Below, one piece after another: positions 3,968-26,022 of a stretch of 64,000 bases of DNA (position 1 is the first letter of the stretch; each line of letters begins with the position of its first letter). Origin of the DNA: Escherichia coli (lineage in GTDB: Bacteria > Pseudomonadota > Gammaproteobacteria > Enterobacterales > Enterobacteriaceae); assembly GCF_016026235.1 (NCBI RefSeq), contig NZ_CP065613.1. One strand, written 5' to 3'. The notes under the pieces are model-generated. The model was not told where the DNA came from. It worked only from the letters and a program-made list of their open reading frames with translations, and ran no database searches. Position numbers and translations under genes: made by a program.

Positions 3968-10031
<6,064 letters not shown>

Positions 10032-10067
10032 TTAACAATAAGTAATGTTTGCGCTGTAAATGTAGAT

Positions 10068-10084
10068 TGCAGGGTTCGTGCCAG
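10068..10084 (-). promoter_or_regulatory. Sigma-54-type promoter (-24 GG / -12 GC) upstream of astC
   Basis: Minus strand reads CTGGCAC-gaacc-CTGCA, matching TGGCAC-N5-TTGCA, about 75 bp upstream of the astC start. Confidence 0.55.
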
Positions 10085-10440
10085 CCAGTGATGAAAGTGC
10101 ATAAACCGCGGAGGCTAACTGGAAATCAAGGAGTTATAACCAAACCATATGCATTTAAAGTGCATATTAAGTGAATACGTTTGCGATGTGAGCGAATAAA
10201 AAGAATAAAAAACGCAATGTTATGCAGAAGTAAAATATAATTCTGGAATTGTGATCATTGACGAAATTTACTGGAAATTACTGCGCCATTCTGACGCAGC
10301 TCGCACCAAAAGCGGGCATTTTTTGCGCCATCGTTGACATCATTAACAACCATCGATCAAATCACTTAACAACAGGCGGTAAGCAAAGCGAAATTCTGCT
10401 ACCATCCACGCACTCTTTATCTGAATAAATGGCAGCGACT

Positions 10441-11247
10441 ATGAAATTTGTCTCTTTTAATATCAACGGCCTGCGCGCCAGGCCCCACCAGCTTAAAGCC
10501 ATCGTCGAAAAGCACCAACCGGATGTGATTGGCCTGCAGGAGACAAAAGTTCATGACGATATGTTTCCGCTCGAAGAGGTGGCGAAGCTCGGCTACAACG
10601 TGTTTTATCACGGGCAGAAAGGCCATTATGGCGTGGCGCTGCTGACCAAAGAGACGCCGATTGCCGTGCGTCGCGGCTTTCCCGGTGACGACGAAGAGGC
10701 GCAGCGGCGGATTATTATGGCGGAAATCCCCTCGCCGCTGGGCAATGTCACCGTGATCAACGGTTACTTCCCGCAGGGTGAAAGCCGCGACCATCCGATA
10801 AAATTCCCGGCAAAAGCGCAGTTTTATCAGAATCTGCAAAACTACCTGGAAACCGAACTCAAGCGTGAAAATCCGGTGCTGATTATGGGCGATATGAATA
10901 TCAGTCCTGGCGACCTGGATATTGGCATTGGCGAAGAAAACCGTAAGCGCTGGCTGCGTACCGGTAAATGCTCTTTCCTGCCGGAAGAGCGCGAATGGAT
11001 GGACAGGCTGATGAGCTGGGGGTTGGTCGATACCTTCCGCCATGCGAATCCGCAAACAGCAGATCGTTTCTCATGGTTTGATTACCGCTCAAAAGGTTTT
11101 GACGATAACCGTGGTCTGCGCATCGACCTGCTGCTCGCCAGCCAACCGCTGGCAGAATGTTGCGTAGAAACCGGCATCGACTATGAAATCCGCAGCATGG
11201 AAAAACCGTCCGATCACGCCCCCGTCTGGGCGACCTTCCGCCGCTAA
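10441..11247 (+). CDS. xthA: Exodeoxyribonuclease III
   Basis: ORF 10429-11247; start at [14 protein letters not shown] gives 268 aa. Confidence 0.93.
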
Positions 11248-11413
11248 TTTAGCAGCTCTCCTGGCTCAAACTGGGTCAGGAGAATTAACCTTGAGAAAAA
11301 TCAACAAACTGTCAGTAATGATTTGTTGCCTGCCGTCCTTTGTTATACCGTCTCCGCGTTTTTAGTTGTCTGACCACTTCTCTATTATCAAGTTTGATAT
11401 AGGAAACTCCACG

Positions 11414-12124
11414 ATGAACGCTGAGCGTAAATTTCTTTTTGCCTGTCTTATTTTTGCGCTGGTCATTTACGCTATCCACGCTTTCGGTTTATTCGATCTG
11501 CTCACCGATTTACCCCACTTACAGACACTCATCCGCCAGAGCGGATTGTTCGGTTATAGCCTCTATATTCTGTTATTCATCATTGCCACCCTCTTTCTGT
11601 TACCAGGAAGCATACTGGTGATCGCTGGAGGAATAGTTTTTGGCCCGCTCTTAGGAACACTACTCTCATTAATTGCCGCCACGCTGGCCTCCTCGTGCTC
11701 ATTCCTGCTGGCGCGCTGGCTGGGACGTGATTTACTGCTGAAATACGTTGGCCATAGCCATACCTTCCAGGCCATTGAAAAAGGCATCGCGCGTAACGGT
11801 ATTGATTTTCTTATTCTGACCCGCTTAATCCCGTTGTTTCCTTACAATATTCAAAATTACGCTTACGGATTAACCACCATCGCCTTCTGGCCTTATACCC
11901 TTATTTCGGCACTCACGACCCTGCCCGGTATTGTTATTTATACCGTGATGGCAAGCGATCTCGCCAATGAAGGCATTACGCTGCGCTTTATTTTACAACT
12001 CTGTCTGGCGGGCCTGGCGCTGTTTATTCTCGTCCAGCTCGCCAAACTCTACGCCCGACACAAACATGTGGATCTGTCTGCTTCGCGCCGCAACCCACTT
12101 ACTCACCCAAAAAATGAAGGATAG
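11414..12124 (+). CDS. ydjX: DedA/TVP38-family inner membrane protein
   Basis: ORF 11366-12124; internal Met MNAERKFLF gives 236 aa; multiple hydrophobic segments. Confidence 0.8.
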   Translation: MNAERKFLFACLIFALVIYAIHAFGLFDLLTDLPHLQTLIRQSGLFGYSLYILLFIIATLFLLPGSILVIAGGIVFGPLLGTLLSLIAATLASSCSFLLARWLGRDLLLKYVGHSHTFQAIEKGIARNGIDFLILTRLIPLFPYNIQNYAYGLTTIAFWPYTLISALTTLPGIVIYTVMASDLANEGITLRFILQLCLAGLALFILVQLAKLYARHKHVDLSASRRNPLTHPKNEG

Positions 12125-12128
12125 AACG

Positions 12129-12806
12129 ATGTTGCAACATTATTCAGTGTCATGGAAAAAAGGACTGACTGCACTCTGCTTACTGGCTGTTGCTGGGCTT
12201 AGCGGCTGCGATCAAAAAGAGAATACGGCGGCAAAAGTGGAATACGACGGACTTTCGAACAGCCAACCGCTGCGCGTCGATGCCAATAACCATACGGTAA
12301 CCATGCTGGTGCAAATTAATGGTCGTTTCCTCACCGACGACACTCGTCACGGTATTGTGTTTAAAGATGGCTCCAACGGACATAAATCGCTGTTTATGGG
12401 TTATGCGACCCCGAAAGCATTTTATGAAGCCCTGAAAGAGGCAGGTGGTACGCCGGGCGAAAACATGACGATGGATAATAAAGAAACGACTCATGTCACG
12501 GGCAGCAAACTGGATATTTCGGTCAACTGGCAAGGGGCGGCAAAAACGTATTCCTTCGATGAAGTGATTGTTGACAGTAATGGCAAGAAACTGGACATGC
12601 GCTTTGGCGGTAATTTAACGGCAGCAGAAGAGAAGAAAACGGGTTGCCTGGTGTGTCTGGATAGCTGCCCGGTCGGCATCGTCAGCAATGCAACATACAC
12701 TTATGGTGCGGTTGAAAAACGAGGTGAAGTTAAATTCAAAGGCAATGCCTCGGTTCTCCCGGCGGATAACACGCTGGCAACGGTTACCTTTAAAATCACC
12801 GAATAA
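12129..12806 (+). CDS. ydjY: Putative lipoprotein YdjY
   Basis: Start at MLQHYSVSW with lipobox LSGC; 225 aa. Confidence 0.78.
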   Translation: MLQHYSVSWKKGLTALCLLAVAGLSGCDQKENTAAKVEYDGLSNSQPLRVDANNHTVTMLVQINGRFLTDDTRHGIVFKDGSNGHKSLFMGYATPKAFYEALKEAGGTPGENMTMDNKETTHVTGSKLDISVNWQGAAKTYSFDEVIVDSNGKKLDMRFGGNLTAAEEKKTGCLVCLDSCPVGIVSNATYTYGAVEKRGEVKFKGNASVLPADNTLATVTFKITE

Positions 12807-12820
12807 AGCCAGGATAAAGG

Positions 12821-13528
12821 ATGATGAAGATGCAATCGCGTAAAATCTGGTACTACCGTATAACCCTCATCATCCTGTTGTTCGCTATGCTGCTGGCATG
12901 GGCGCTGCTTCCCGGCGTCCATGAGTTTATCAATCGCAGCGTTGCGGCGTTTGCCGCCGTGGACCAACAGGGTATAGAACGCTTTATTCAGTCTTACGGC
13001 GCACTGGCGGCAGTTGTCTCGTTCTTGTTGATGATTTTACAGGCCATTGCTGCACCGCTACCTGCGTTTTTGATCACCTTTGCCAATGCGTCGCTGTTTG
13101 GCGCGTTCTGGGGCGGCTTGCTGTCGTGGACCAGTTCGATGGCCGGCGCGGCACTGTGCTTTTTTATCGCCAGAGTGATGGGCCGCGAAGTGGTGGAAAA
13201 ATTAACCGGCAAAACCGTGCTTGACAGTATGGACGGCTTTTTCACTCGCTACGGCAAACACACCATCCTGGTCTGTCGGTTATTGCCTTTTGTCCCTTTC
13301 GATCCAATCAGCTATGCTGCCGGTCTGACTTCAATACGTTTTCGCTCGTTTTTTATCGCCACCGGGCTTGGTCAATTACCGGCGACTATTGTTTATTCCT
13401 GGGCGGGCAGCATGTTAACAGGCGGTACTTTCTGGTTTGTCACCGGACTGTTTATTCTGTTTGCCCTGACCGTGGTGATTTTTATGGCGAAGAAAATATG
13501 GCTTGAGCGCCAGAAGAGGAATGCCTGA
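12821..13528 (+). CDS. ydjZ: DedA/TVP38-family inner membrane protein
   Basis: 235-aa hydrophobic ORF, paralogous in appearance to ydjX. Confidence 0.8.
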   Translation: MMKMQSRKIWYYRITLIILLFAMLLAWALLPGVHEFINRSVAAFAAVDQQGIERFIQSYGALAAVVSFLLMILQAIAAPLPAFLITFANASLFGAFWGGLLSWTSSMAGAALCFFIARVMGREVVEKLTGKTVLDSMDGFFTRYGKHTILVCRLLPFVPFDPISYAAGLTSIRFRSFFIATGLGQLPATIVYSWAGSMLTGGTFWFVTGLFILFALTVVIFMAKKIWLERQKRNA

Positions 13529-14076
13529 TGGGTTTACCGCCGCTTAGCAAAATTCCTTTCATTTTACGTCCGCAGGCGTGGCTGCATCGTCGCCATTACG
13601 GCGAGGTGCTAAGCCCGATTCGCTGGTGGGGGCGGATCCCGTTTATCTTTTATTTGGTGTCAATGTTTGTTGGGTGGCTGGAGCGCAAACGCTCACCGCT
13701 CGATCCGGTAGTGCGATCGCTTGTCAGCGCGCGCATTGCGCAAATGTGCCTGTGTGAGTTTTGCGTGGATATCACCAGTATGAAAGTCGCCGAGCGTACC
13801 GGCAGCACCGATAAACTGCTGGCAGTGGCTGACTGGCGGCAAAGCCCGCTCTTTAGCGATGAAGAACGGCTGGCGCTGGAGTACGCCGAAGCCGCAAGCG
13901 TCACACCGCCAACAGTCGATGATGCCCTGCGTACCCGACTGGCTGCGCATTTTGACGCTCAGGCGCTCACCGAACTGACGGCATTGATCGGCCTGCAAAA
14001 CCTGTCGGCTCGTTTTAATTCTGCCATGGACATTCCCGCTCAGGGGCTGTGCCGTATTCCTGAAAAACGTTCTTAA
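13528..14076 (+). CDS. ynjA: AhpD-like (carboxymuconolactone decarboxylase family) protein
   Basis: 182-aa ORF with CxxC (CEFCVD); ATGA overlap with the ydjZ stop. Confidence 0.78.
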   Translation: MGLPPLSKIPFILRPQAWLHRRHYGEVLSPIRWWGRIPFIFYLVSMFVGWLERKRSPLDPVVRSLVSARIAQMCLCEFCVDITSMKVAERTGSTDKLLAVADWRQSPLFSDEERLALEYAEAASVTPPTVDDALRTRLAAHFDAQALTELTALIGLQNLSARFNSAMDIPAQGLCRIPEKRS

Positions 14077-14085
14077 GGAGAGATG

Positions 14086-15252
14086 ATGCGCCATTGTGGG
14101 TGGTTGCTGGGATTGTTATCGCTGTTTTCTTTGGCAACACATGCCAGTGACTGGCAGGAAATTAAAAATGAGGCCAAAGGGCAAACCGTCTGGTTTAACG
14201 CCTGGGGCGGCGATACCGCAATTAACCGCTATCTCGACTGGGTTAGCGGCGAGATGAAAACCCATTACGCTATAAACCTGAAGATTGTTCGTCTCGCGGA
14301 TGCCGCAGACGCGGTGAAGCGCATTCAGACCGAAGCTGCTGCCGGACGTAAAACGGGCGGCTCGGTGGATCTGCTCTGGATGAACGGCGAAAACTTCCGC
14401 ACCTTAAAAGAGGCCAATTTATTACAAACGGGCTGGGCGGAGACTCTGCCCAACTGGCGCTATGTCGACACACAGCTGCCGGTGCGGGAAGATTTTTCAG
14501 TGCCGACACAAGGTGCGGAATCGCCCTGGGGCGGCGCACAACTGACGTTTATCGCCCGCCGCGATGTTACGCCACAGCCACCACAAACGCCGCAAGCCTT
14601 ACTGGAGTTTGCTAAAGTCAATCCCGGCACGGTTACCTATCCGCGCCCACCGGACTTTACCGGCACGGCGTTTCTTGAACAGTTGCTGATTATGCTGACG
14701 CCCGATCCCGCAGCATTAAAAGAAGCGCCGGACGATGCGACTTTCGCCCGTGTCACTGCTCCCTTGTGGCAATATCTTGATGCGCTACATCCGTATTTGT
14801 GGCGCGAAGGAAAGGATTTCCCGCCTTCGCCCGCGCGGATGGATGCTCTGCTGAAAGCCGGCACATTGCGCCTGTCGCTGACCTTTAACCCCGCGCATGC
14901 GCAGCAAAAAATCGCCAGCGGCGATTTGCCGGCAAGCAGTTACAGTTTTGGCTTTCGCGAGGGGATGATTGGCAACGTGCATTTCGTCACCATTCCAGCC
15001 AACGCGAATGCCAGTGCTGCGGCGAAGGTAGTTGCCAATTTCCTGCTCTCACCCGATGCGCAACTGCGTAAAGCAGATCCCGTTGTCTGGGGCGATCCTT
15101 CTGTTCTCGATCCGCAAAAACTGCCTGACGGGCAGCGCGAAATATTGCAATCAAGAATGCCGCAGGATCTGCCGCCGGTACTGGCTGAACCGCACGCAGG
15201 ATGGGTGAATGCACTGGAACAAGAATGGTTACGCCGTTACGGTACGCATTAA
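14086..15252 (+). CDS. ynjB: ABC transporter periplasmic substrate-binding protein
   Basis: ORF 14083-15252 with N-terminal signal peptide; start taken at the second Met for 388 aa (start uncertain by one codon). Confidence 0.75.
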   Translation: MRHCGWLLGLLSLFSLATHASDWQEIKNEAKGQTVWFNAWGGDTAINRYLDWVSGEMKTHYAINLKIVRLADAADAVKRIQTEAAAGRKTGGSVDLLWMNGENFRTLKEANLLQTGWAETLPNWRYVDTQLPVREDFSVPTQGAESPWGGAQLTFIARRDVTPQPPQTPQALLEFAKVNPGTVTYPRPPDFTGTAFLEQLLIMLTPDPAALKEAPDDATFARVTAPLWQYLDALHPYLWREGKDFPPSPARMDALLKAGTLRLSLTFNPAHAQQKIASGDLPASSYSFGFREGMIGNVHFVTIPANANASAAAKVVANFLLSPDAQLRKADPVVWGDPSVLDPQKLPDGQREILQSRMPQDLPPVLAEPHAGWVNALEQEWLRRYGTH

Positions 15253-16760
15253 TCTTTTTGCTGTGGGCGATGGTGGCGGTGATTTATGCACCGCTGATCC
15301 CGGCAGCTCTCACGCTGATATCGCCTGCGTTGTCGTTGACACACTGGCAGGCGTTATTTGCCGATCCACAGTTACCGCAGGCATTACTGGCAACGCTGGT
15401 GTCGACAACCATCGCGGCGGTCGGGGCATTGTTGATTGCCCTGCTGGTGATTGTGGCGCTATGGCCTGGGCCGAAATGGCAGCGTATGTGCGCCCGTCTG
15501 CCGTGGCTGCTCGCCATTCCCCATGTGGCTTTTGCCACCAGCGCCCTGCTGCTCTTTGCTGACGGAGGGCTGCTATATGACTATTTCCCGTATTTCACTC
15601 CGCCAATGGACCGATTTGGCATCGGTCTGGGCCTCACCCTTGCAGTGAAAGAAAGCGCATTTCTGCTGTGGATCTTAGCGGCAGTATTGAGCGAAAAACG
15701 GCTGTTGCAGCAGGTCATTGTGCTGGATTCGCTGGGCTACAGCCGCTGGCAATGCCTGAACTGGCTGCTGTTGCCCTCCGTCGCGCCTTCGCTGGCAATG
15801 GCGATGCTGGCGATTGTTGCCTGGTCGCTTTCGGTCGTGGATGTGGCGATTATTCTTGGGCCAGGTAATCCACCGACGCTGGCAGTAATTAGCTGGCAGT
15901 GGTTAACTCAGGGCGACGCGGATCAACAAACGAAAGGCGCACTCGCCAGTCTGCTGCTGATGCTGTTACTCGCCGCCTACGTTTTGCTGAGCTATCTGCT
16001 ATGGCGCAGCTGGCGGCGCACTATTCCCCGCGTAGATGGCATTCGCAAGCCTGCCACACCTTTATTACCAGGCACCACGCTGGCGAGTTTTTTACCCTTG
16101 ACCGGTGTGCTGTGTGTGGTTCTGCTGGCGATCCTCGCGGATCAGTCGACGATCAATAGTGAAGCGCTCATCAACAGCCTGACAATGGGGCTGGTGGCGA
16201 CATTCATCGCTTGGCTCCTGTTACTGCTGTGGCTGGAATGGGGGCCACAGCGTCGCCAGTTGTGGCTATGGTTGCCCATTTTATTACCGGCACTGCAGCT
16301 GGTGGCGGGCCAGTACACGCTGGCGCTATGGCTGAACATGGATGGAAGCTGGACGGCGGTGGTCTGGGGGCATCTGCTGTGGGTAATGCCGTGGATGCTG
16401 TTTATCCTGCAACCCGCCTGGCAGCGCATTGATTCACGGTTAATTTTGATTGCACAAACACTGGGCTGGTCGCGGGCCAAAATCTTCTTTTACGTGAAAT
16501 GTCCGCTTATGCTACGCCCTACGCTGATTGCCTTCGCGGTGGGATTTTCAGTCAGTATTGCGCAGTATATGCCGACGCTGTGGCTGGGCGCGGGGCGTTT
16601 TCCGACGCTCACCACTGAGGCGGTGGCATTAAGCAGCGGCGGCAGCAACGGTATTCTCGCCGCCCAGGCTTTATGGCAACTGCTATTACCGCTTACTATT
16701 TTTGCCCTGACCGCGTTAGTCGCAAAATGGGTAGGTTATGTCAGACAAGGACTCCGCTAA
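15225..16760 (+). CDS. ynjC: ABC transporter permease (fused two-domain)
   Basis: ORF 15201-16760; start at MVTPLRYALIF gives 511 aa; highly hydrophobic. Overlaps the ynjB 3' end. Confidence 0.78.
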   Translation: MVTPLRYALIFLLWAMVAVIYAPLIPAALTLISPALSLTHWQALFADPQLPQALLATLVSTTIAAVGALLIALLVIVALWPGPKWQRMCARLPWLLAIPHVAFATSALLLFADGGLLYDYFPYFTPPMDRFGIGLGLTLAVKESAFLLWILAAVLSEKRLLQQVIVLDSLGYSRWQCLNWLLLPSVAPSLAMAMLAIVAWSLSVVDVAIILGPGNPPTLAVISWQWLTQGDADQQTKGALASLLLMLLLAAYVLLSYLLWRSWRRTIPRVDGIRKPATPLLPGTTLASFLPLTGVLCVVLLAILADQSTINSEALINSLTMGLVATFIAWLLLLLWLEWGPQRRQLWLWLPILLPALQLVAGQYTLALWLNMDGSWTAVVWGHLLWVMPWMLFILQPAWQRIDSRLILIAQTLGWSRAKIFFYVKCPLMLRPTLIAFAVGFSVSIAQYMPTLWLGAGRFPTLTTEAVALSSGGSNGILAAQALWQLLLPLTIFALTALVAKWVGYVRQGLR

Positions 16761-17413
16761 TGCTCTGCGTGAAAAATGTTTCGCTACGTTTACCAGAAAG
16801 CCGCTTGCTGACAAACGTTAACTTTACGGTGGATAAAGGTGACATTGTCACGTTAATGGGTCCGTCTGGCTGTGGAAAATCCACTCTGTTTTCATGGATG
16901 ATTGGTGCACTGGCTGGACAGTTTTCTTGTACAGGTGAGCTATGGCTCAATGAGCAACGGATTGACATGCTACCCACCGCACAGCGTCATATTGGCATTC
17001 TTTTCCAGGATGCACTGTTATTTGACCAGTTCAGTGTCGGGCAAAATTTACTGCTGGCGCTACCGGCGACACTTAAGGGGAATGCCCGACGTAATGCCGT
17101 GAATGATGCACTTGAGCGTTCAGGCCTTGACGGAGCTTTCCATCAGGATCCTGCCACTTTGTCTGGCGGTCAGCGAGCGCGCGTTGCTCTGCTTCGCGCC
17201 CTTCTCGCTCAGCCAAAAGCGTTGCTACTGGATGAGCCATTCAGCCGTCTTGATGTGGCTCTGCGCGATAATTTTCGCCAGTGGGTGTTCAGCGAAGTTC
17301 GCGAACTGGCGATCCCCGTCGTTCAGGTAACGCACGATCTCCAGGATGTTCCTGCTGATAGTTCTGTTCTGGATATGGCGCAGTGGTCAGAAAATTACAA
17401 CAAACTGCGATAA
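16760..17413 (+). CDS. ynjD: ABC transporter ATP-binding protein
   Basis: Walker A GPSGCGKST and signature LSGGQRARV; 217 aa from MLCVKNVSL. Confidence 0.85.
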   Translation: MLCVKNVSLRLPESRLLTNVNFTVDKGDIVTLMGPSGCGKSTLFSWMIGALAGQFSCTGELWLNEQRIDMLPTAQRHIGILFQDALLFDQFSVGQNLLLALPATLKGNARRNAVNDALERSGLDGAFHQDPATLSGGQRARVALLRALLAQPKALLLDEPFSRLDVALRDNFRQWVFSEVRELAIPVVQVTHDLQDVPADSSVLDMAQWSENYNKLR

Positions 17414-17479
17414 CGCAAAGTTTTTCTCAATGCGTCAGTTCAGAATGGCGCACTCAAAACTACAATGTCGGGATTTTCG

Positions 17480-18788
17480 ATGAAACGTGTTTCTCAAATG
17501 ACCGCGCTGGCAATGGCTTTAAGGGCTGGCTTGCGCTTCTTCGTGGGCCGCTGAACTGGCGAAGCCTCTTACACTTGACCAGCTTCAACAACAAAATGGC
17601 AAAGCGATAGATACTCGCCCCAGCGCGTTTTATAACGGCTGGCCACAAACCTTAAATGGCCCTTCTGGTCATGAACCTGCCGCCTTAAACCTCTCTGCCA
17701 GCTGGCTCGACAAAATGAGCACCGAACAGCTCAACGCGTGGATCAAGCAACATAACCTGAAAGCCGATGCCCCGGTGGCGCTGTACGGTAATGACAAAGA
17801 TGTCGACGCCGTCAAAACGCGACTGCAAAAAGCAGGTTTTACGCATATCTCCATTCTGAGTGACGCGCTAAGCGAACCTTCCCGTCTACAAAAACTGCCG
17901 CACTTTGAGCAGCTGGTTTATCCGCAATGGCTGCACGACCTGCAACAAGGTAAAGAGGTTACGGCGAAACCTGCCGGTGACTGGAAAGTCATTGAAGCGG
18001 CCTGGGGCGCTCCTAAGCTTTACCTTATCAGCCATATTCCCGGTGCTGACTACATCGATACCAACGAAGTGGAAAGCGAACCGCTGTGGAACAAAGTTTC
18101 TGATGAACAACTAAAAGCGATGCTGGCAAAACACGGCATTCGCCATGACACCACGGTCATTCTGTACGGGCGTGACGTATACGCTGGAGCGCGTGTTGCG
18201 CAAATTATGCTCTACGCAGGCGTGAAAGATGTGCGTCTGCTGGATGGCGGCTGGCAAACCTGGTCCGACGCGGGACTGCCTGTTGAGCGAGGAACGCCAC
18301 CGAAAGTGAAAGCGGAACCGGATTTCGGCGTGAAGATCCCGGCACAACCGCAGTTGATGCTCGATATGGAACAGGCCCGTGGACTGCTGCATCGCCAGGA
18401 TGCATCGCTGGTGAGCATTCGTTCGTGGCCAGAATTTATCGGTACGACCAGCGGTTACAGCTATATTAAACCAAAAGGTGAAATAGCCGGAGCACGTTGG
18501 GGACACGCTGGTAGCGACTCGACGCATATGGAAGATTTTCATAACCCGGATGGCACCATGCGCAGCGCCGATGATATTACCGCTATGTGGAAAGCGTGGA
18601 ATATCAAACCAGAGCAGCAAGTTTCATTCTACTGCGGCACCGGCTGGCGCGCGTCCGAAACCTTTATGTACGCACGCGCCATGGGCTGGAATAACGTCTC
18701 CGTTTACGACGGCGGCTGGTACGAATGGAGCAGCGATCCAAAAAATCCGGTAGCAACCGGTGAACGCGGCCCGGACAGTAGCAAATAA
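17480..18788 (+). pseudogene. ynjE: Periplasmic rhodanese-domain sulfurtransferase YnjE, interrupted by a +1 bp frameshift in the signal peptide
   Basis: ATG at 17480 opens MKRVSQMTALAMAL then hits TGA after 24 codons; the remainder continues one frame over to 18788. Span is 1308 nt (435 aa plus stop) plus 1. Extra A at 17521/17522 (tttaaggg). Confidence 0.75.
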
Positions 18789-18796
18789 CATTGCAA

Positions 18797-19417
18797 TTAC
18801 TGACGCTGGAGCGACTTCAGCGTCAGATACCCACTCCACACCCGCGTAAAGGTCGTCATCCAGCACAACGCACCGAAGATCCACGCAAACCACGCAAACC
18901 ATGCAGGGAATAAACATCCCAGCACAAACAGTAAGATCGTTTCTGTGCCTTCGGTTAATCCCCCCAGATAGTAAAACGACTTATGTGCATAACCGGGGTT
19001 ATCAATCTGATGTTTTGCTGCCAGTGCAGCAAAGGCGAGAAAACTGCTGCCCGTGCCGATAAACGCAAACAACAACCAGCCGCCTGCCAGCGCATTTTGC
19101 TCCGGTGCAGCAAGAATAAAGCCAAACGGCACCAGCGCGTAAAAGAGAAAATCGAGAGAAATATCAAGAAAGCCGCCCGCGTCGGTAAGCTCTCTGCGCC
19201 GCGCCAGCGCACCGTCCAGACCATCAAGCAGCCTGTTCAACAAAATGACGACTAGCGCCGCCAGATACCAGCCCAGCGCCAGAAACGGCAGAGCCAGCAC
19301 GCCGATGGCAAATCCCACTAATGTTAAACCATCTGGCGTAATGCCCGGTTTATCAAGAACCCGCACGCACTGATGCAACAACGGTTTAATCCGGGGATGA
19401 AGATGGCGGTCTAGCAC
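18797..19417 (-). CDS. ynjF: CDP-alcohol phosphatidyltransferase family membrane protein
   Basis: ORF 18797-19423; second GTG gives 206 aa; DGxxAR motif (LDGLDGALARR). Confidence 0.75.
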   Translation of the reverse strand: MLDRHLHPRIKPLLHQCVRVLDKPGITPDGLTLVGFAIGVLALPFLALGWYLAALVVILLNRLLDGLDGALARRRELTDAGGFLDISLDFLFYALVPFGFILAAPEQNALAGGWLLFAFIGTGSSFLAFAALAAKHQIDNPGYAHKSFYYLGGLTEGTETILLFVLGCLFPAWFAWFAWIFGALCWMTTFTRVWSGYLTLKSLQRQ

Positions 19418-19503
19418 AGGCACTCCTTAAATATAAAGCCTTTCTGATTGAGCAACAGTGCGGATATTATGGCATTTTTCGCTTATCTGCCCGTGTGTAA
19501 TTT

Positions 19504-19911
19504 ATGAAAATGATTGAAGTTGTTGCCGCCATCATTGAACGTGATGGCAAAATTTTACTCGCGCAACGCCCCGCCCAGAGCGATCAGGCGGGATTATGGG
19601 AGTTTGCCGGTGGTAAAGTCGAGCTGGATGAAAGCCAGCGGCAGGCGCTGGTGCGTGAGTTACGCGAAGAACTGGGCATCGAAGCAACTGTGGGTGAGTA
19701 TGTTGCCAGCCATCAGCGAGAAGTTTCGGGGCGGATTATCCATCTTCATGCCTGGCACGTACCCGACTTCCACGGGACGTTACAGGCACATGAACATCAG
19801 GCGCTGGTCTGGTGCTCACCTGAAGAGGCGCTGCAATATCCGCTGGCTCCTGCTGACATTCCATTATTAGAGGCATTTATGGCTTTACGCGCCGCCAGAC
19901 CAGCGGATTAG
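19504..19911 (+). CDS. nudG: Nudix hydrolase (CTP/dCTP pyrophosphohydrolase)
   Basis: 135-aa ORF with Nudix box (GGKVELDESQRQALVRELREELGIE). Confidence 0.88.
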   Translation: MKMIEVVAAIIERDGKILLAQRPAQSDQAGLWEFAGGKVELDESQRQALVRELREELGIEATVGEYVASHQREVSGRIIHLHAWHVPDFHGTLQAHEHQALVWCSPEEALQYPLAPADIPLLEAFMALRAARPAD

Positions 19912-20149
19912 TGCTAAGGGTTTTGTCATCCCGCTGGCATTGCAGCAGTATTCCTTCGGCTTTAATTACCGCCCCTTCAGAATAATTTTTATCCTGATAA
20001 ACGCAGCACTGAGTACAGGGCTGCGCTGACTGCCCGCCTGAACTGAACACTTCTGGCGGTACGTTTACCGCCACGTCCGGACGATAATGCGGCTTAGCCA
20101 GTGCAATTAATGGAAATGCTAATACTACGGCGAACAATGCTCGACTCAC
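19877..20149 (-). CDS. ynjH: DUF1496 secreted protein
   Basis: 90-aa ORF with signal peptide; 3' end overlaps nudG convergently by 35 bp. Confidence 0.7.
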   Translation of the reverse strand: MSRALFAVVLAFPLIALAKPHYRPDVAVNVPPEVFSSGGQSAQPCTQCCVYQDKNYSEGAVIKAEGILLQCQRDDKTLSTNPLVWRRVKP

Positions 20150-20384
20150 AGGGAACTCCTTAACGTTATTGTCTCTGCTACTGATAACGGTAGCCGGGTG
20201 GCAAAACTTTAGCGTCTGAGTTATCGCATTTGGTTATGAGATTACTCTCGTTATTAATTTGCTTTCCTGGGTCATTTTTTTCTTGCTTACCGTCACATTC
20301 TTGATGGTATAGTCGAAAACTGCAAAAGCACATGACATAAACAACATAAGCACAATCGTATTAATATATAAGGGTTTTATATCT

Positions 20385-21728
20385 ATGGATCAGACATATT
20401 CTCTGGAGTCATTCCTCAACCATGTCCAAAAGCGCGACCCGAATCAAACCGAGTTCGCGCAAGCCGTTCGTGAAGTAATGACCACACTCTGGCCTTTTCT
20501 TGAACAAAATCCAAAATATCGTCAGATGTCATTACTGGAGCGTCTGGTTGAACCGGAGCGCGTGATCCAGTTTCGCGTGGTATGGGTTGACGATCGCAAC
20601 CAGGTACAGGTCAACCGTGCATGGCGCGTGCAGTTCAGCTCCGCCATCGGCCCGTACAAAGGCGGTATGCGCTTCCATCCGTCAGTTAACCTCTCCATTC
20701 TCAAATTTCTCGGCTTCGAGCAAACCTTCAAAAATGCCCTGACTACCCTGCCGATGGGCGGTGGTAAAGGCGGCAGCGATTTCGATCCAAAAGGGAAAAG
20801 CGAAGGCGAAGTGATGCGTTTCTGCCAGGCGCTGATGACTGAACTGTATCGCCACCTGGGCGCGGATACCGACGTTCCGGCAGGTGATATCGGCGTTGGT
20901 GGTCGTGAAGTCGGCTTTATGGCGGGGATGATGAAAAAGCTCTCCAACAATACCGCCTGCGTCTTCACCGGTAAGGGCCTTTCATTTGGCGGTAGTCTTA
21001 TTCGCCCGGAAGCTACCGGCTACGGTCTGGTTTATTTCACAGAAGCAATGTTAAAACGCCACGGTATGGGTTTTGAAGGGATGCGCGTTTCCGTTTCTGG
21101 CTCCGGCAACGTCGCCCAGTACGCTATCGAAAAAGCGATGGAATTTGGTGCTCGTGTGATCACTGCGTCAGACTCCAGCGGCACTGTAGTTGATGAAAGC
21201 GGATTCACGAAAGAGAAACTGGCACGTCTTATCGAAATCAAAGCCAGCCGCGATGGTCGAGTGGCAGATTACGCCAAAGAATTTGGTCTGGTCTATCTCG
21301 AAGGCCAACAGCCGTGGTCTGTACCGGTTGATATCGCCCTGCCTTGCGCCACCCAGAACGAACTGGATGTTGACGCCGCGCATCAGCTTATCGCCAATGG
21401 CGTTAAAGCCGTCGCCGAAGGGGCAAATATGCCGACCACCATCGAAGCGACTGAACTGTTCCAGCAGGCAGGCGTACTGTTTGCACCGGGTAAAGCGGCT
21501 AATGCTGGCGGTGTAGCAACGTCAGGCCTTGAAATGGCGCAAAACGCTGCGCGCCTGGGCTGGAAAGCCGAGAAAGTTGACGCACGTTTGCATCACATCA
21601 TGCTGGATATCCACCATGCCTGTGTTGAGCATGGTGGTGAAGGTGAGCAAACCAACTACGTGCAGGGCGCGAACATTGCCGGTTTTGTGAAGGTTGCCGA
21701 TGCGATGCTGGCGCAGGGTGTGATTTAA
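20385..21728 (+). CDS. gdhA: NADP-specific glutamate dehydrogenase
   Basis: 447-aa ORF with the Glu/Leu/Phe/Val dehydrogenase active-site region (GGGKGG). Confidence 0.95.
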   Translation: MDQTYSLESFLNHVQKRDPNQTEFAQAVREVMTTLWPFLEQNPKYRQMSLLERLVEPERVIQFRVVWVDDRNQVQVNRAWRVQFSSAIGPYKGGMRFHPSVNLSILKFLGFEQTFKNALTTLPMGGGKGGSDFDPKGKSEGEVMRFCQALMTELYRHLGADTDVPAGDIGVGGREVGFMAGMMKKLSNNTACVFTGKGLSFGGSLIRPEATGYGLVYFTEAMLKRHGMGFEGMRVSVSGSGNVAQYAIEKAMEFGARVITASDSSGTVVDESGFTKEKLARLIEIKASRDGRVADYAKEFGLVYLEGQQPWSVPVDIALPCATQNELDVDAAHQLIANGVKAVAEGANMPTTIEATELFQQAGVLFAPGKAANAGGVATSGLEMAQNAARLGWKAEKVDARLHHIMLDIHHACVEHGGEGEQTNYVQGANIAGFVKVADAMLAQGVI

Positions 21729-24978: not shown

Positions 24979-26022
24979 TTAACGGATCTCAACCATGGCA
25001 CGACCGCCGCGCGCTGGCACCAGTTCGCCAATCGCCGTCAGTTCAATGCCAAACTCGGCGGCTGTAGCTTTAACCTCATTTTCTGCTTCCGGCATGACCG
25101 CCAGCAGCAAACCGCCAGAAGTTTGCGGATCGCACAGCAAATCGCGCACTTCACGCGGCATTTCACCCATCAGATGACCGTAGCTGGCAAAGTTACGTTC
25201 GGTGCCGCCAGGCACTGCGCCCAACTTAATGTACTCTTCAACCCCCGGCAATTTTGGGATCGCGTCATAGTCAACGCGCGCCTGCACACCTGCGCCCTGA
25301 CACATTTCGCTCAAATGGCCCAGCAGGCCAAAGCCCGTTACGTCGGTCATCGCTTTTACGCCTTCAATGTTGGCAAAGGACGCGCCTGCGATGTTCATCC
25401 GGCACATCACTTCCGTCGCCAGTCCCTGATGTTCTGGTTTCAGCAGTGATTTTTTCTCAGCCGTGGTAAGAACGCCGATCCCCAGCGGTTTCGTCAGGAA
25501 CAGTTTACATCCGGCTTGTGCGGTACTGTTTTTCTTCACCCGCTCGGTCGGTACGATCCCCGTCACCGCCAAACCAAAAATCGGCTCCGGCGCATCGATG
25601 GAGTGACCGCCAGCCAGCGCAATACCCGCCTGACGACATGCATAGCGTCCACCTTCGGTCACTTCGCGGGCAATTTCCGGGGAAAGTTTATTAATCGGCC
25701 AGCCGAGGATCGCAATCGCCATAATCGGCTTGCCCCCCATCGCGAAGATATCGCTGATGGCGTTAGTCGCCGCAATGCGGCCAAAATCGAAAGGATTATC
25801 AACGATCGGCATAAAGAAGTCGGTGGTACTGATAACGCTGGTGCCATTGCCCAGATCGTACACCGCCGCATCGTCGCGGGTTTCATTACCCACAAGCAAA
25901 TTCGGATCAACAAACTTCGCCTGCTCACTGTGCAGGATGGTTTCCAACACTTTTGGGGAAATTTTACAGCCGCAACCAGCTCCGTGGCTGTATTGGGTCA
26001 AACGAATCGAGTTCTCGCTCAT
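24979..26022 (-). CDS. selD: Selenide, water dikinase (selenophosphate synthetase)
   Basis: ORF 24979-26028; start at [20 protein letters not shown] gives 347 aa. Sits 4 bp upstream of topB. Confidence 0.92.

Follow-up and report, generated by a model that had tools for sequence, protein, structure and literature searches.

Does the ydjX-ynjE block of Escherichia coli, a run of y-genes encoding two DedA/TVP38-type membrane proteins, a lipoprotein, an AhpD-like protein, an ATP-binding cassette (ABC) importer and a rhodanese, serve a single pathway, and what might that pathway handle? The block occupies positions 11414–18788 of the window, by which we mean the whole 64,000-nucleotide (nt) stretch of contig NZ_CP065613.1 (RefSeq assembly GCF_016026235.1) that was analysed. 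An earlier note on this stretch had proposed one transcription unit and had seen a hint of uptake and redox handling of a sulfur-containing or thiamine-like substrate. Our comparisons point to a relay in the cell envelope that would pass on a thiophilic chalcogen, selenium being the likeliest, under anaerobic conditions; we draw this reading from sequence and gene neighbourhoods and assign it a probability of roughly 40%. That the block is an operon and a functional unit we consider very probable.

The feature was already known, since it has been published as an FNR-activated operon plus a separate ynjE unit. What we add is its cross-phylum context, taken from 80 loci, and the selenium hypothesis, which we did not find in the searchable literature. 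With the link to SelD, YedF, tRNA-Sec and SelA/B, there is now a concrete hypothesis for these y-genes that knockouts can test, and a candidate substrate class for both the YdjY fold and the TVP38 branch of the DedA superfamily. If the hypothesis is true, it would give E. coli the specific route of selenium uptake that has long been sought, and TVP38-type DedA proteins their first bacterial function.

The block belongs to an old gene set found across phyla

In the window, xthA is followed by the co-directional genes ydjX to ynjE, and ynjF converges on them from the minus strand. Coordinates were taken from open reading frames (ORFs) and from the RefSeq annotation of strain FDAARGOS_943 transferred to the window, and both agree. 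That strain is 99.9% identical over the block, the window differing at five positions in 8.5 kb. The region 11000–19500 is matched by 5424 of 5426 complete E. coli genomes (coverage of at least 80% in 5383), and its base composition (GC 0.48–0.57) gives no sign of recent transfer; the ydjX-ynjE block is core, annotated E. coli DNA. The eight co-directional genes and the protein families listed for them in the earlier note were confirmed by ORFs, RefSeq-equivalent coordinates and domain searches.

We scanned one genome per species, 100,044 species in total, with a YdjY pattern and found the protein encoded in approximately 92. Enteric carriers are Escherichia species and one Citrobacter. Among Bacillota, YdjY is found in Finegoldia, Peptostreptococcus, Gemella, Facklamia, Catonella, Clostridium and Thermincola, and further carriers are Desulfobacterota, Sulfurospirillum, Campylobacter and one spirochaete. 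Eighty loci (6 enteric and 74 non-enteric, numbered with an L below) were retrieved, all ORFs were translated and searched with the window proteins, and neighbours were clustered without prior labels. The full block is present in all six enteric loci. A DedA gene stands beside YdjY in 70 of the 74 non-enteric loci; of the four without one, most are short contigs. YdjY adjoins a YdjZ-type orthologue (E 1e-59 to 1e-83) in 52 of the 74 and is accompanied by a YdjX-type DedA in 30, while a small four-helix membrane protein follows YdjY in 31 and a Fer4/CCG (heterodisulfide-reductase-like) protein is present in 23. YnjB-like and YnjC-like genes occur together in 10 non-enteric loci, a YnjE-like rhodanese in seven and a YnjF-like gene in five, in three of which it lies directly upstream of the YnjB-like gene. 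Loci with the YnjF-like gene immediately upstream of ynjB-like are L052, L058, L067 and L093; YnjF-like genes are also found in L036 and L043.

Some of these partners are physically joined. In Finegoldia, Tissierellia and Gemella (L015, L016, L019 and L020; L040, 760–1983), the small four-helix protein is fused to the YdjZ-type N-terminus, giving proteins of approximately 380–400 amino acids; E. coli has the small protein neither as a fusion nor as a separate gene. In Desulfobacterota the Fer4/CCG protein is fused to the YdjX-type DedA. On a metagenome contig (L093, 715–6083), one product of 714 amino acids joins a TVP38-type DedA to a flavoprotein resembling MerA or dihydrolipoamide dehydrogenase. 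Next come genes for a YnjF-like protein (E 6e-19), a YnjB-like protein and a YnjC-like permease, with no YdjY; these genes are divergent from a TIGR03169 'Nterm_to_SelD' oxidoreductase. Other recurrent cluster members are ArsS (TIGR04167, 433 bits against a cut-off of 300), seen in 8 loci from 8 genus-level groups, the pair TIGR04282 and TIGR04283, seen in 16 loci, an APH- or MTR-kinase-like kinase, a nucleoside hydrolase and an MprF-like flippase domain. ArsS, TIGR04282 and TIGR04283 are absent from all six enteric loci.

Absence of conserved co-occurrence in other genomes had been named in the earlier note as a ground for giving up the idea of a unit. What we observed is clearly the opposite: the core of the block recurs across phyla. 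This recurrence indicates that the block is a functional unit, and that ynjF, which lies outside 11414–18788 but within the conserved neighbourhood, belongs to it. We conclude with high confidence that the E. coli block represents, in enterobacteria, an old gene set that crosses phyla and is typical of anaerobes.

Selenium genes recur beside the YdjY-DedA core

At least one selenium marker lies within 10 kb in 13 of the 74 non-enteric loci, which come from Facklamia, several Desulfobacterota and one other Bacillota genome; the markers are SelD, YedF, SclA-like proteins, LysR_Se, tRNA-Sec and SelA/B. In Facklamia and four lineages of Desulfobacterota, SelD (TIGR00476, 359–373 bits) is encoded a few kb or less from YdjY. 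The order in L027 is Fer4/CCG-DedA fusion, YdjY, small transmembrane protein, SelD, and in L081 it is SelD, YedF, YdjY. L080 and L086 carry YedF, an SclA-like desulfurase, SelD, a gene on the opposite strand, the DedA fusion, YdjY and the small transmembrane protein. In L053, YdjY, the small transmembrane protein and ArsS are followed by YedF, and in L023 the gene of a LysR_Se-like regulator lies divergently to that of YdjY. In loci with YedF, the annotated neighbours showed no YedE-type carrier. The chance of at least four independent SelD adjacencies among 32 genus-level groups is approximately 3e-4 or less, a rough estimate that assumes a single-copy gene and ignores relatedness between the groups.

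The longest association is found in Facklamia, where tRNA-Sec stands beside the cluster in all five loci. The run, mostly co-directional, starts with a rhodanese, a YnjB-like substrate-binding protein, two permeases and an ATPase, and continues with an opposite-strand rhodanese, an unannotated 151-residue ORF, a TIGR04282-kinase fusion, TIGR04283, a PrdB-like selenoprotein, DsbD_TM, Redoxin, YdjZ, YdjX and a nucleoside hydrolase. It ends with the small transmembrane protein, YdjY, a rhodanese, tRNA-Sec, SelD, YedF (129 bits, cut-off 110), SelB and SelA. Ahead of the run, encoded divergently on the opposite strand, lie LysR_Sec_metab (303 bits against a cut-off of 250) and an SclA-like desulfurase. 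The PrdB-like protein (L089, 12643–13362), of approximately 239 residues and encoded between TIGR04283 and DsbD_TM, contains an in-frame TGA (…SPG-U-YICHQ…), and appears to be an uncharacterised selenoprotein tied to the YdjY-DedA system. A PrdB-like fragment related to it is also present in Bacillus benzoevorans (L069).

E. coli selD lies in the window at 24979–26022 on the minus strand, 6.2 kb past ynjE, and its product shares 39% identity with a deltaproteobacterial SelD encoded near YdjY. The genes ynjF, nudG, ynjH, gdhA, ynjI and topB are located between ynjE and selD.

YdjY has other neighbours as well. In Finegoldia (L005 and L006, 9698–9958), an 86-residue cobW-family ORF lies directly upstream of YdjY and may be a fragment of a metallochaperone GTPase. 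A MacB-type ABC exporter (FtsX/MacB_PCD permease and ATPase) and a DUF4418 membrane protein are encoded near YdjY in five Bacillota loci (L052, 5113–7440; L046, L047, L030 and L031).

The operon from ydjX to ynjD and its FNR-type promoter

Junctions within the block are tight. Gaps of 4 nt separate ydjX from ydjY, 14 nt ydjY from ydjZ and 9 nt ynjA from ynjB; ydjZ and ynjA overlap by 1 nt, ynjB and ynjC by 28 nt and ynjC and ynjD by 1 nt. The two latter overlaps are as the earlier note had described them, while the ATGA it reported as shared by ydjZ and ynjA is actually a TGATG junction. Between ynjD and ynjE there is instead a gap of 66 nt.

Upstream of ydjX we found an FNR-type box, TTGAGAAAAATCAA, at 11291–11304 on the plus strand (centre 11297.5), which matches the consensus TTGAT-N4-ATCAA at 9 of 10 positions. 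An extended –10 element, TGtTATACC, can be read from the sequence at 11341–11349 on the same strand. Transcription is predicted to start at approximately 11358, which places the box at about –60.5, where a class I site is expected to be centred near –61. The box is invariant in Escherichia species and nearly so in Citrobacter sp. R56; box and extended –10 are both kept from E. coli through E. albertii to Citrobacter sp. R56 while flanking bases diverge. The arrangement is that of a class I FNR-activated promoter, given the predicted start site. It agrees with Myers et al. (2013), who concluded from FNR chromatin immunoprecipitation and RNA-seq that FNR directly activates ydjXYZ-ynjABCD as one operon from a site at –60.5, and who described ynjE as a separate FNR-activated unit.

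Internal promoters or terminators between the genes would have spoken against one transcription unit. A consensus scan of 11414–17413 matched no promoter-like site, and no terminator-like site was found in any gap between genes of the block. The only sigma-70-like promoter match within 11000–19600, TTCAGA-16-TACAAT, is located at 17439–17466 on the plus strand, in the gap ahead of ynjE. With this match in a 66-nt gap, and with the separate unit of Myers et al. (2013), ynjE should not be counted simply as an eighth operon gene. No FNR box with at least 8 of 10 matches was found within 17200–17480, upstream of ynjE, so its FNR dependence is taken from the literature. BaeR over-expression raised ynjA and ynjB approximately 1.5-fold in the study of Bury-Moné et al., in which ynjABCD was handled as a sub-unit; from this mild rise, a minor internal start may exist. 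The single transcription unit originally suggested for the block is therefore supported for ydjX to ynjD, with its tight junctions, clean scan and published operon, and not for ynjE. We are highly confident that ydjX-ydjY-ydjZ-ynjA-ynjB-ynjC-ynjD is one FNR-activated operon with a promoter approximately 56 nt upstream of ydjX, and that ynjE has its own anaerobic promoter and is met by the convergent ynjF.

The ydjX leader contains a 21-nt near-palindrome, CTATTATCAAGTTTGATATAG, at 11383–11403 on the plus strand, after the predicted start site and ahead of the ribosome-binding site. From E. coli to Citrobacter sp. R56 its sequence does not change, while its flanks diverge. The fold of the leader RNA is not significant (z –1.25), so that a protein operator seems likelier, and we regard the palindrome as a candidate operator. 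An Rfam scan of 10000–20500 gave no match with E up to 0.1. Directly past the xthA stop codon lies a 12-nt inverted repeat (11257–11283, plus strand; 83% complementary, 3-nt loop); this hairpin, which precedes the ydjX promoter, is probably where the xthA transcript ends.

Proteins encoded by the block

YdjX (11414–12124, plus strand, 236 amino acids) and YdjZ (12821–13528, plus strand, 235 amino acids) are TVP38-type DedA membrane proteins, scoring 93 and 87 bits with the VTT/DedA domain (Pfam gathering cut-off 33.9). They are 27% identical to each other (E 5e-18). Against the UptA equivalog they reach 27.5 and 36.4 bits, well under the cut-off of 250. When the eight E. coli DedA paralogues, including ydjX and ydjZ, were expressed in Bacillus subtilis, high-level undecaprenyl-phosphate transport activity was reported only from DedA.

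YdjY (12129–12806, plus strand) belongs to the NF040466/PF27149 domain family (146 bits, cut-off 50). Its lipobox, LSGC27, is followed by Asp at +2, the classical inner-membrane retention signal of lipoproteins. The mature protein contains exactly three cysteines, C173, C176 and C180. All three are invariant in 26 aligned sequences from three phyla, in the motif GCLxCLDSCP, and H74 is invariant too. Homologues across phyla are 46–64% identical and have an N-terminal signal or lipoprotein peptide in common.

YnjA (13528–14076, plus strand) is an AhpD/CMD-like protein (CMD domain 36.4 bits, cut-off 23) with the motif C74-x-C76-x-x-C79, in which C76-E-F-C79 forms a CxxC; its structure matches are AhpD and Bmp8. 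It also resembles NF053654, 'YciW-related (seleno)protein' (E 6e-29), at a score under the cut-off of that model. Among the 80 loci YnjA was found in the enteric ones only, and its slot in the enteric operon is that of the CCG protein in Bacillota operons such as L058 and L052.

YnjB (14086–15252, plus strand) matches SBP_bac_8 with 51.6 bits (cut-off 27) and NF008633 with 555 bits, as expected of the periplasmic substrate-binding protein of an ABC importer. YnjC (15225–16760, plus strand) is a fused double permease of 511 amino acids with approximately 12 transmembrane segments by hydropathy scan; it scores 19.7 bits with BPD_transp_1, under the gathering threshold of 26.4, and has partial matches to PhnU2, ModB and CysT. 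YnjD (16760–17413, plus strand) is an ABC ATPase (ABC_tran, 104 bits). By these matches YnjBCD is predicted to be a binding-protein-dependent ABC importer. The earlier note had looked to structure modelling for the substrate of YnjB. The model is confident (pLDDT 95), yet no substrate could be inferred from it, because the solved relatives, PhnS-like, PotD, FutA, FbpA, AfuA and TbpA, are all equally distant cluster-D binding proteins (11–18% identity, TM-score 0.55–0.67). No sequence match to YnjB was found in the PDB. Mature YnjB is without cysteine, and three alignment columns alone are invariant. It is 34% identical to the substrate-binding protein of the Facklamia cluster (E 3e-64). Two of three distant homologues sampled stand alone with a permease, which indicates that the YnjB family is broader than the ydjXYZ-ynj system.

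YnjE, a three-domain periplasmic rhodanese (17480–18788, plus strand), is frameshifted in the window, as the earlier note had said. An extra A in the run at 17521–17522 breaks the frame at codon 14–15, in the signal peptide, and a stop follows after 24 codons, so that no exported full-length YnjE is encoded by the sequence as it stands. The gene is intact in FDAARGOS_943, and the 61-mer carrying the frameshift is found in none of 5423 complete E. coli genomes. We therefore rejected a lineage trait and take the frameshift to be a private mutation or a sequencing error. The downstream frame encodes Rhodanese (102 bits) with Cys385 present. In the literature, YnjE is periplasmic, is poorly active or inactive with thiosulfate or 3-mercaptopyruvate, and has a physiological substrate stated to be unclear; Myers et al. 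(2013) describe it as a molybdopterin synthase sulfurtransferase.

YnjF (18797–19417, minus strand) is a membrane protein of the CDP-alcohol phosphatidyltransferase family (CDP-OH_P_transf, 43.9 bits, cut-off 22). The stop codons of ynjE and ynjF are 8 nt apart, and a terminator-like hairpin on the minus strand (18760–18747) lies within the 3′ end of ynjE. In the region 18789–19503, nudG (CTP pyrophosphohydrolase) is divergent from ynjF (CDP-alcohol transferase). A 2025 survey lists the ynjE-ynjF and nudG-ynjH pairs as overlapping-transcript 'excludons'.

A possible selenium relay

The relay we propose builds on what was observed, namely the anatomy of the block, its FNR-type promoter, the conserved partnerships and the fusions. 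From these we infer three steps: a three-cysteine site on YdjY, a membrane step by DedA proteins and a cytoplasmic thiol acceptor. YdjY, anchored in the inner membrane, would capture the species in the periplasm on its invariant cysteines, and YnjE might hand it over or receive it in the form of a persulfide-like or perselenide-like adduct. The YdjX/YdjZ pair would then move the species, free or linked to a lipid, through the inner membrane; on the inner side the CxxC of cytoplasmic YnjA would resolve the adduct, and the reduced product would feed SelD. Elsewhere the acceptor may be the Fe-S/CCG heterodisulfide-reductase-like protein or the MerA-like flavoprotein, often fused to DedA. YnjBCD would import a second solute. 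From the tight YnjBCD-YnjF linkage, the imported compound may be an alcohol or phospho-alcohol destined for attachment to a CDP-activated lipid, with YnjF probably joining the solute, or a related alcohol, to that lipid; this is the least supported step. Given the same linkage and the lipid-transport activity of characterised DedA proteins, the pathway may also run in a lipid-linked version.

Selenium appears to be the most likely cargo because SelD, YedF and the Sec machinery recur beside the YdjY-DedA core. The formate dehydrogenases of E. coli need selenium anaerobically, and FNR control of the operon fits this demand. We also count in favour of selenium the resemblance of YnjA to a (seleno)protein-annotated family, the poor performance of YnjE with sulfur donors and, as weak evidence, the location of E. 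coli selD 6.2 kb from ynjE.

Several points weigh against selenium. In the searchable literature we found no paper linking the ydj/ynj genes with selenium, and nothing on the function of the block. Most YdjY loci, in Gemella, Finegoldia and Peptostreptococcus, have no selenium gene within 10 kb. Most selenium-using Enterobacteriaceae do not have the block: besides Escherichia, just a few Citrobacter or Enterobacter-like genomes showed it; the block therefore cannot be the sole selenium uptake route. Unrelated genes intervene between ynjE and selD, which makes the proximity of selD in E. coli weak on its own. The same core adjoins ArsS, TIGR04282 and TIGR04283, named by NCBI for arsenosugar biosynthesis, a trio that speaks just as much for arsenic chemistry. 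The DedA proteins that have been characterised transport lipids or polyprenyl-phosphate and are not ion carriers, and the published role of YnjE is sulfur transfer for molybdenum cofactor synthesis. Finally, the AlphaFold model of YdjY (pLDDT 90) has no informative fold match in the PDB and gave no ligand clue, and neither did the YnjB model. Taking both sides together, we find it possible, if doubtful, that YdjY and TVP38-type DedA proteins, helped in E. coli by YnjA, YnjE, YnjBCD and YnjF, form a dedicated anaerobic system for selenium acquisition and trafficking, perhaps via a lipid-linked or organo-selenium intermediate related to the ArsS/TIGR04282/TIGR04283 pathway.

Alternative explanations

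One alternative is sulfur. The block might take up or process periplasmic thiosulfate, polysulfide or persulfide, with YnjE passing sulfur towards the molybdenum cofactor of anaerobic respiratory enzymes; YnjE is after all a rhodanese, named a molybdopterin synthase sulfurtransferase in the FNR regulon paper, the AhpD-like, CCG, DsbD_TM and Redoxin neighbours are all thiol-disulfide proteins, and the YnjD ATPase and YnjC permease weakly resemble sulfate and molybdate transporters. However, the sulfur donors tried with YnjE were poor or inactive and its physiological substrate is stated to be unclear, and what specifically accompanies the core in other phyla is SelD, YedF, tRNA-Sec and SelA/B, in place of genes for sulfur assimilation or the molybdenum cofactor. 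We therefore judge a sulfur route unlikely. The suggestion of a sulfur-containing or thiamine-like substrate survives in its broad form, chalcogen redox handling, with the neighbourhoods favouring selenium over sulfur, and loses its thiamine half. Import of thiamine or an analogue by YnjBCD finds some support in the likeness of YnjD to ThiQ (E 7e-39) and in the fold of YnjB, which resembles thiamine-binding protein among many others. YnjD scores 133.6 bits with the ThiQ equivalog, whose cut-off is 245, and PhnT2, sulfate and polyamine ATPases score as well or better. TbpA (2qry) ranks only 25th among fold matches to YnjB, at 14–15% identity. No thiamine gene or thiamine pyrophosphate riboswitch was found in the window region or in seven related loci, in which an Rfam scan at gathering thresholds gave no riboswitch at all, just 6S RNA, Clostridiales-1 small RNA and tRNA-Sec. 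On these sequence and fold comparisons, thiamine uptake is essentially excluded.

A lipid-linked organo-metalloid pathway would have the DedA pair flip an arsenic- or selenium-bearing sugar or head group linked to a lipid or to polyprenyl phosphate. ArsS, TIGR04282, TIGR04283, the kinase and the nucleoside hydrolase would make this group in other phyla; in E. coli YnjBCD would scavenge it, YnjF would attach it to lipid and YdjY would act outside the membrane. The 8 ArsS loci from as many genus-level groups and the 16 loci with the TIGR04282/TIGR04283 pair argue for such a route, as do the kinase, nucleoside hydrolase, MprF-like flippase domain and YnjF-like transferases within the same clusters, the resemblance of TIGR04283 to polyprenyl-phosphate glycosyltransferases and the lipids moved by characterised DedA proteins. 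Three cysteines, moreover, are a classic As(III) site. Yet neither the Escherichia loci (20 kb each) nor the 64-kb window neighbourhood contains ArsS, TIGR04282/83 or the kinase, many loci consist of YdjY and DedA alone, and just one E. coli paralogue, DedA, gave high-level undecaprenyl-phosphate transport activity in B. subtilis. The 'arsenosugar' names of TIGR04282/83 were themselves assigned by association. This pathway seems to us quite improbable. So does the absence of any common pathway, in which envelope-maintenance proteins and an unrelated ABC importer would share a neighbourhood through anaerobic lifestyle or mobility. The mild induction of ynjA and ynjB by BaeR is a link to envelope stress, DedA mutants in general show pleiotropic envelope phenotypes, and some YnjB homologues stand alone with a permease. 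Against this, YdjY and DedA are adjacent in 70 of 74 loci across three phyla, and the small transmembrane protein-YdjZ and the Fer4/CCG- or MerA-like-DedA fusions join partners in single chains. Such adjacency and fusions, together with repeated recruitment of the same accessory set, are hard to explain without a shared function.

Comparison with known systems

The selenium relay proposed here has its closest parallels in YedE/YedF, a predicted selenium transporter with its redox partner, and in the thiosulfate uptake pair YeeE/YeeD, which like the block combine a membrane carrier with cysteine-based chalcogen partners. YedF adjoins the YdjY-DedA module in Facklamia and several Desulfobacterota where YedE was not detected among the annotated neighbours, the pattern expected if the module were a substitute carrier. 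Unlike the YeeE/YedE fold, the carrier of the block is of the DedA/VTT type, and the block has components that YedE/YedF does not: an extracytoplasmic tri-cysteine lipoprotein, an ABC importer, a rhodanese and a CDP-alcohol transferase. The Mer system (MerP, MerT and MerA) follows the same logic of an outside cysteine site, a membrane carrier and an inside acceptor of the thiol/disulfide-reductase type, and the likeness extends to the TVP38-type DedA-MerA-like fusion that adjoins YnjF and YnjB homologues. The block differs in having no MerP or MerT homologue and no MerR, with FNR control instead, and mercury is not a likely substrate.

Individual parts of the block resemble other systems. YdjX and YdjZ have the VTT/DedA domain in common with the UptA/DedA undecaprenyl-phosphate transporters, but they belong to the TVP38 branch, are tied to YdjY and score 27–36 bits where UptA requires 250. 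The binding-protein fold of YnjB is that of cluster-D importers (PhnSTUV for 2-aminoethylphosphonate, PotABCD for polyamines, FbpABC for iron, ThiBPQ for thiamine and AfuABC for sugar phosphates), with which YnjBCD also shares a fused or double permease and the ATPase family. YnjBCD differs from them in its 11–18% identity to any solved binding protein and in reaching no equivalog cut-off, and it is unique in travelling with the CDP-alcohol phosphatidyltransferase YnjF and TVP38-type DedA proteins. The ArsS/TIGR04282/TIGR04283 trio shares clusters with YdjY-DedA in 8–16 loci of Bacillota, Campylobacterota and Desulfobacterota; it is absent from the enteric loci examined, where E. coli keeps the transport and redox part alone.

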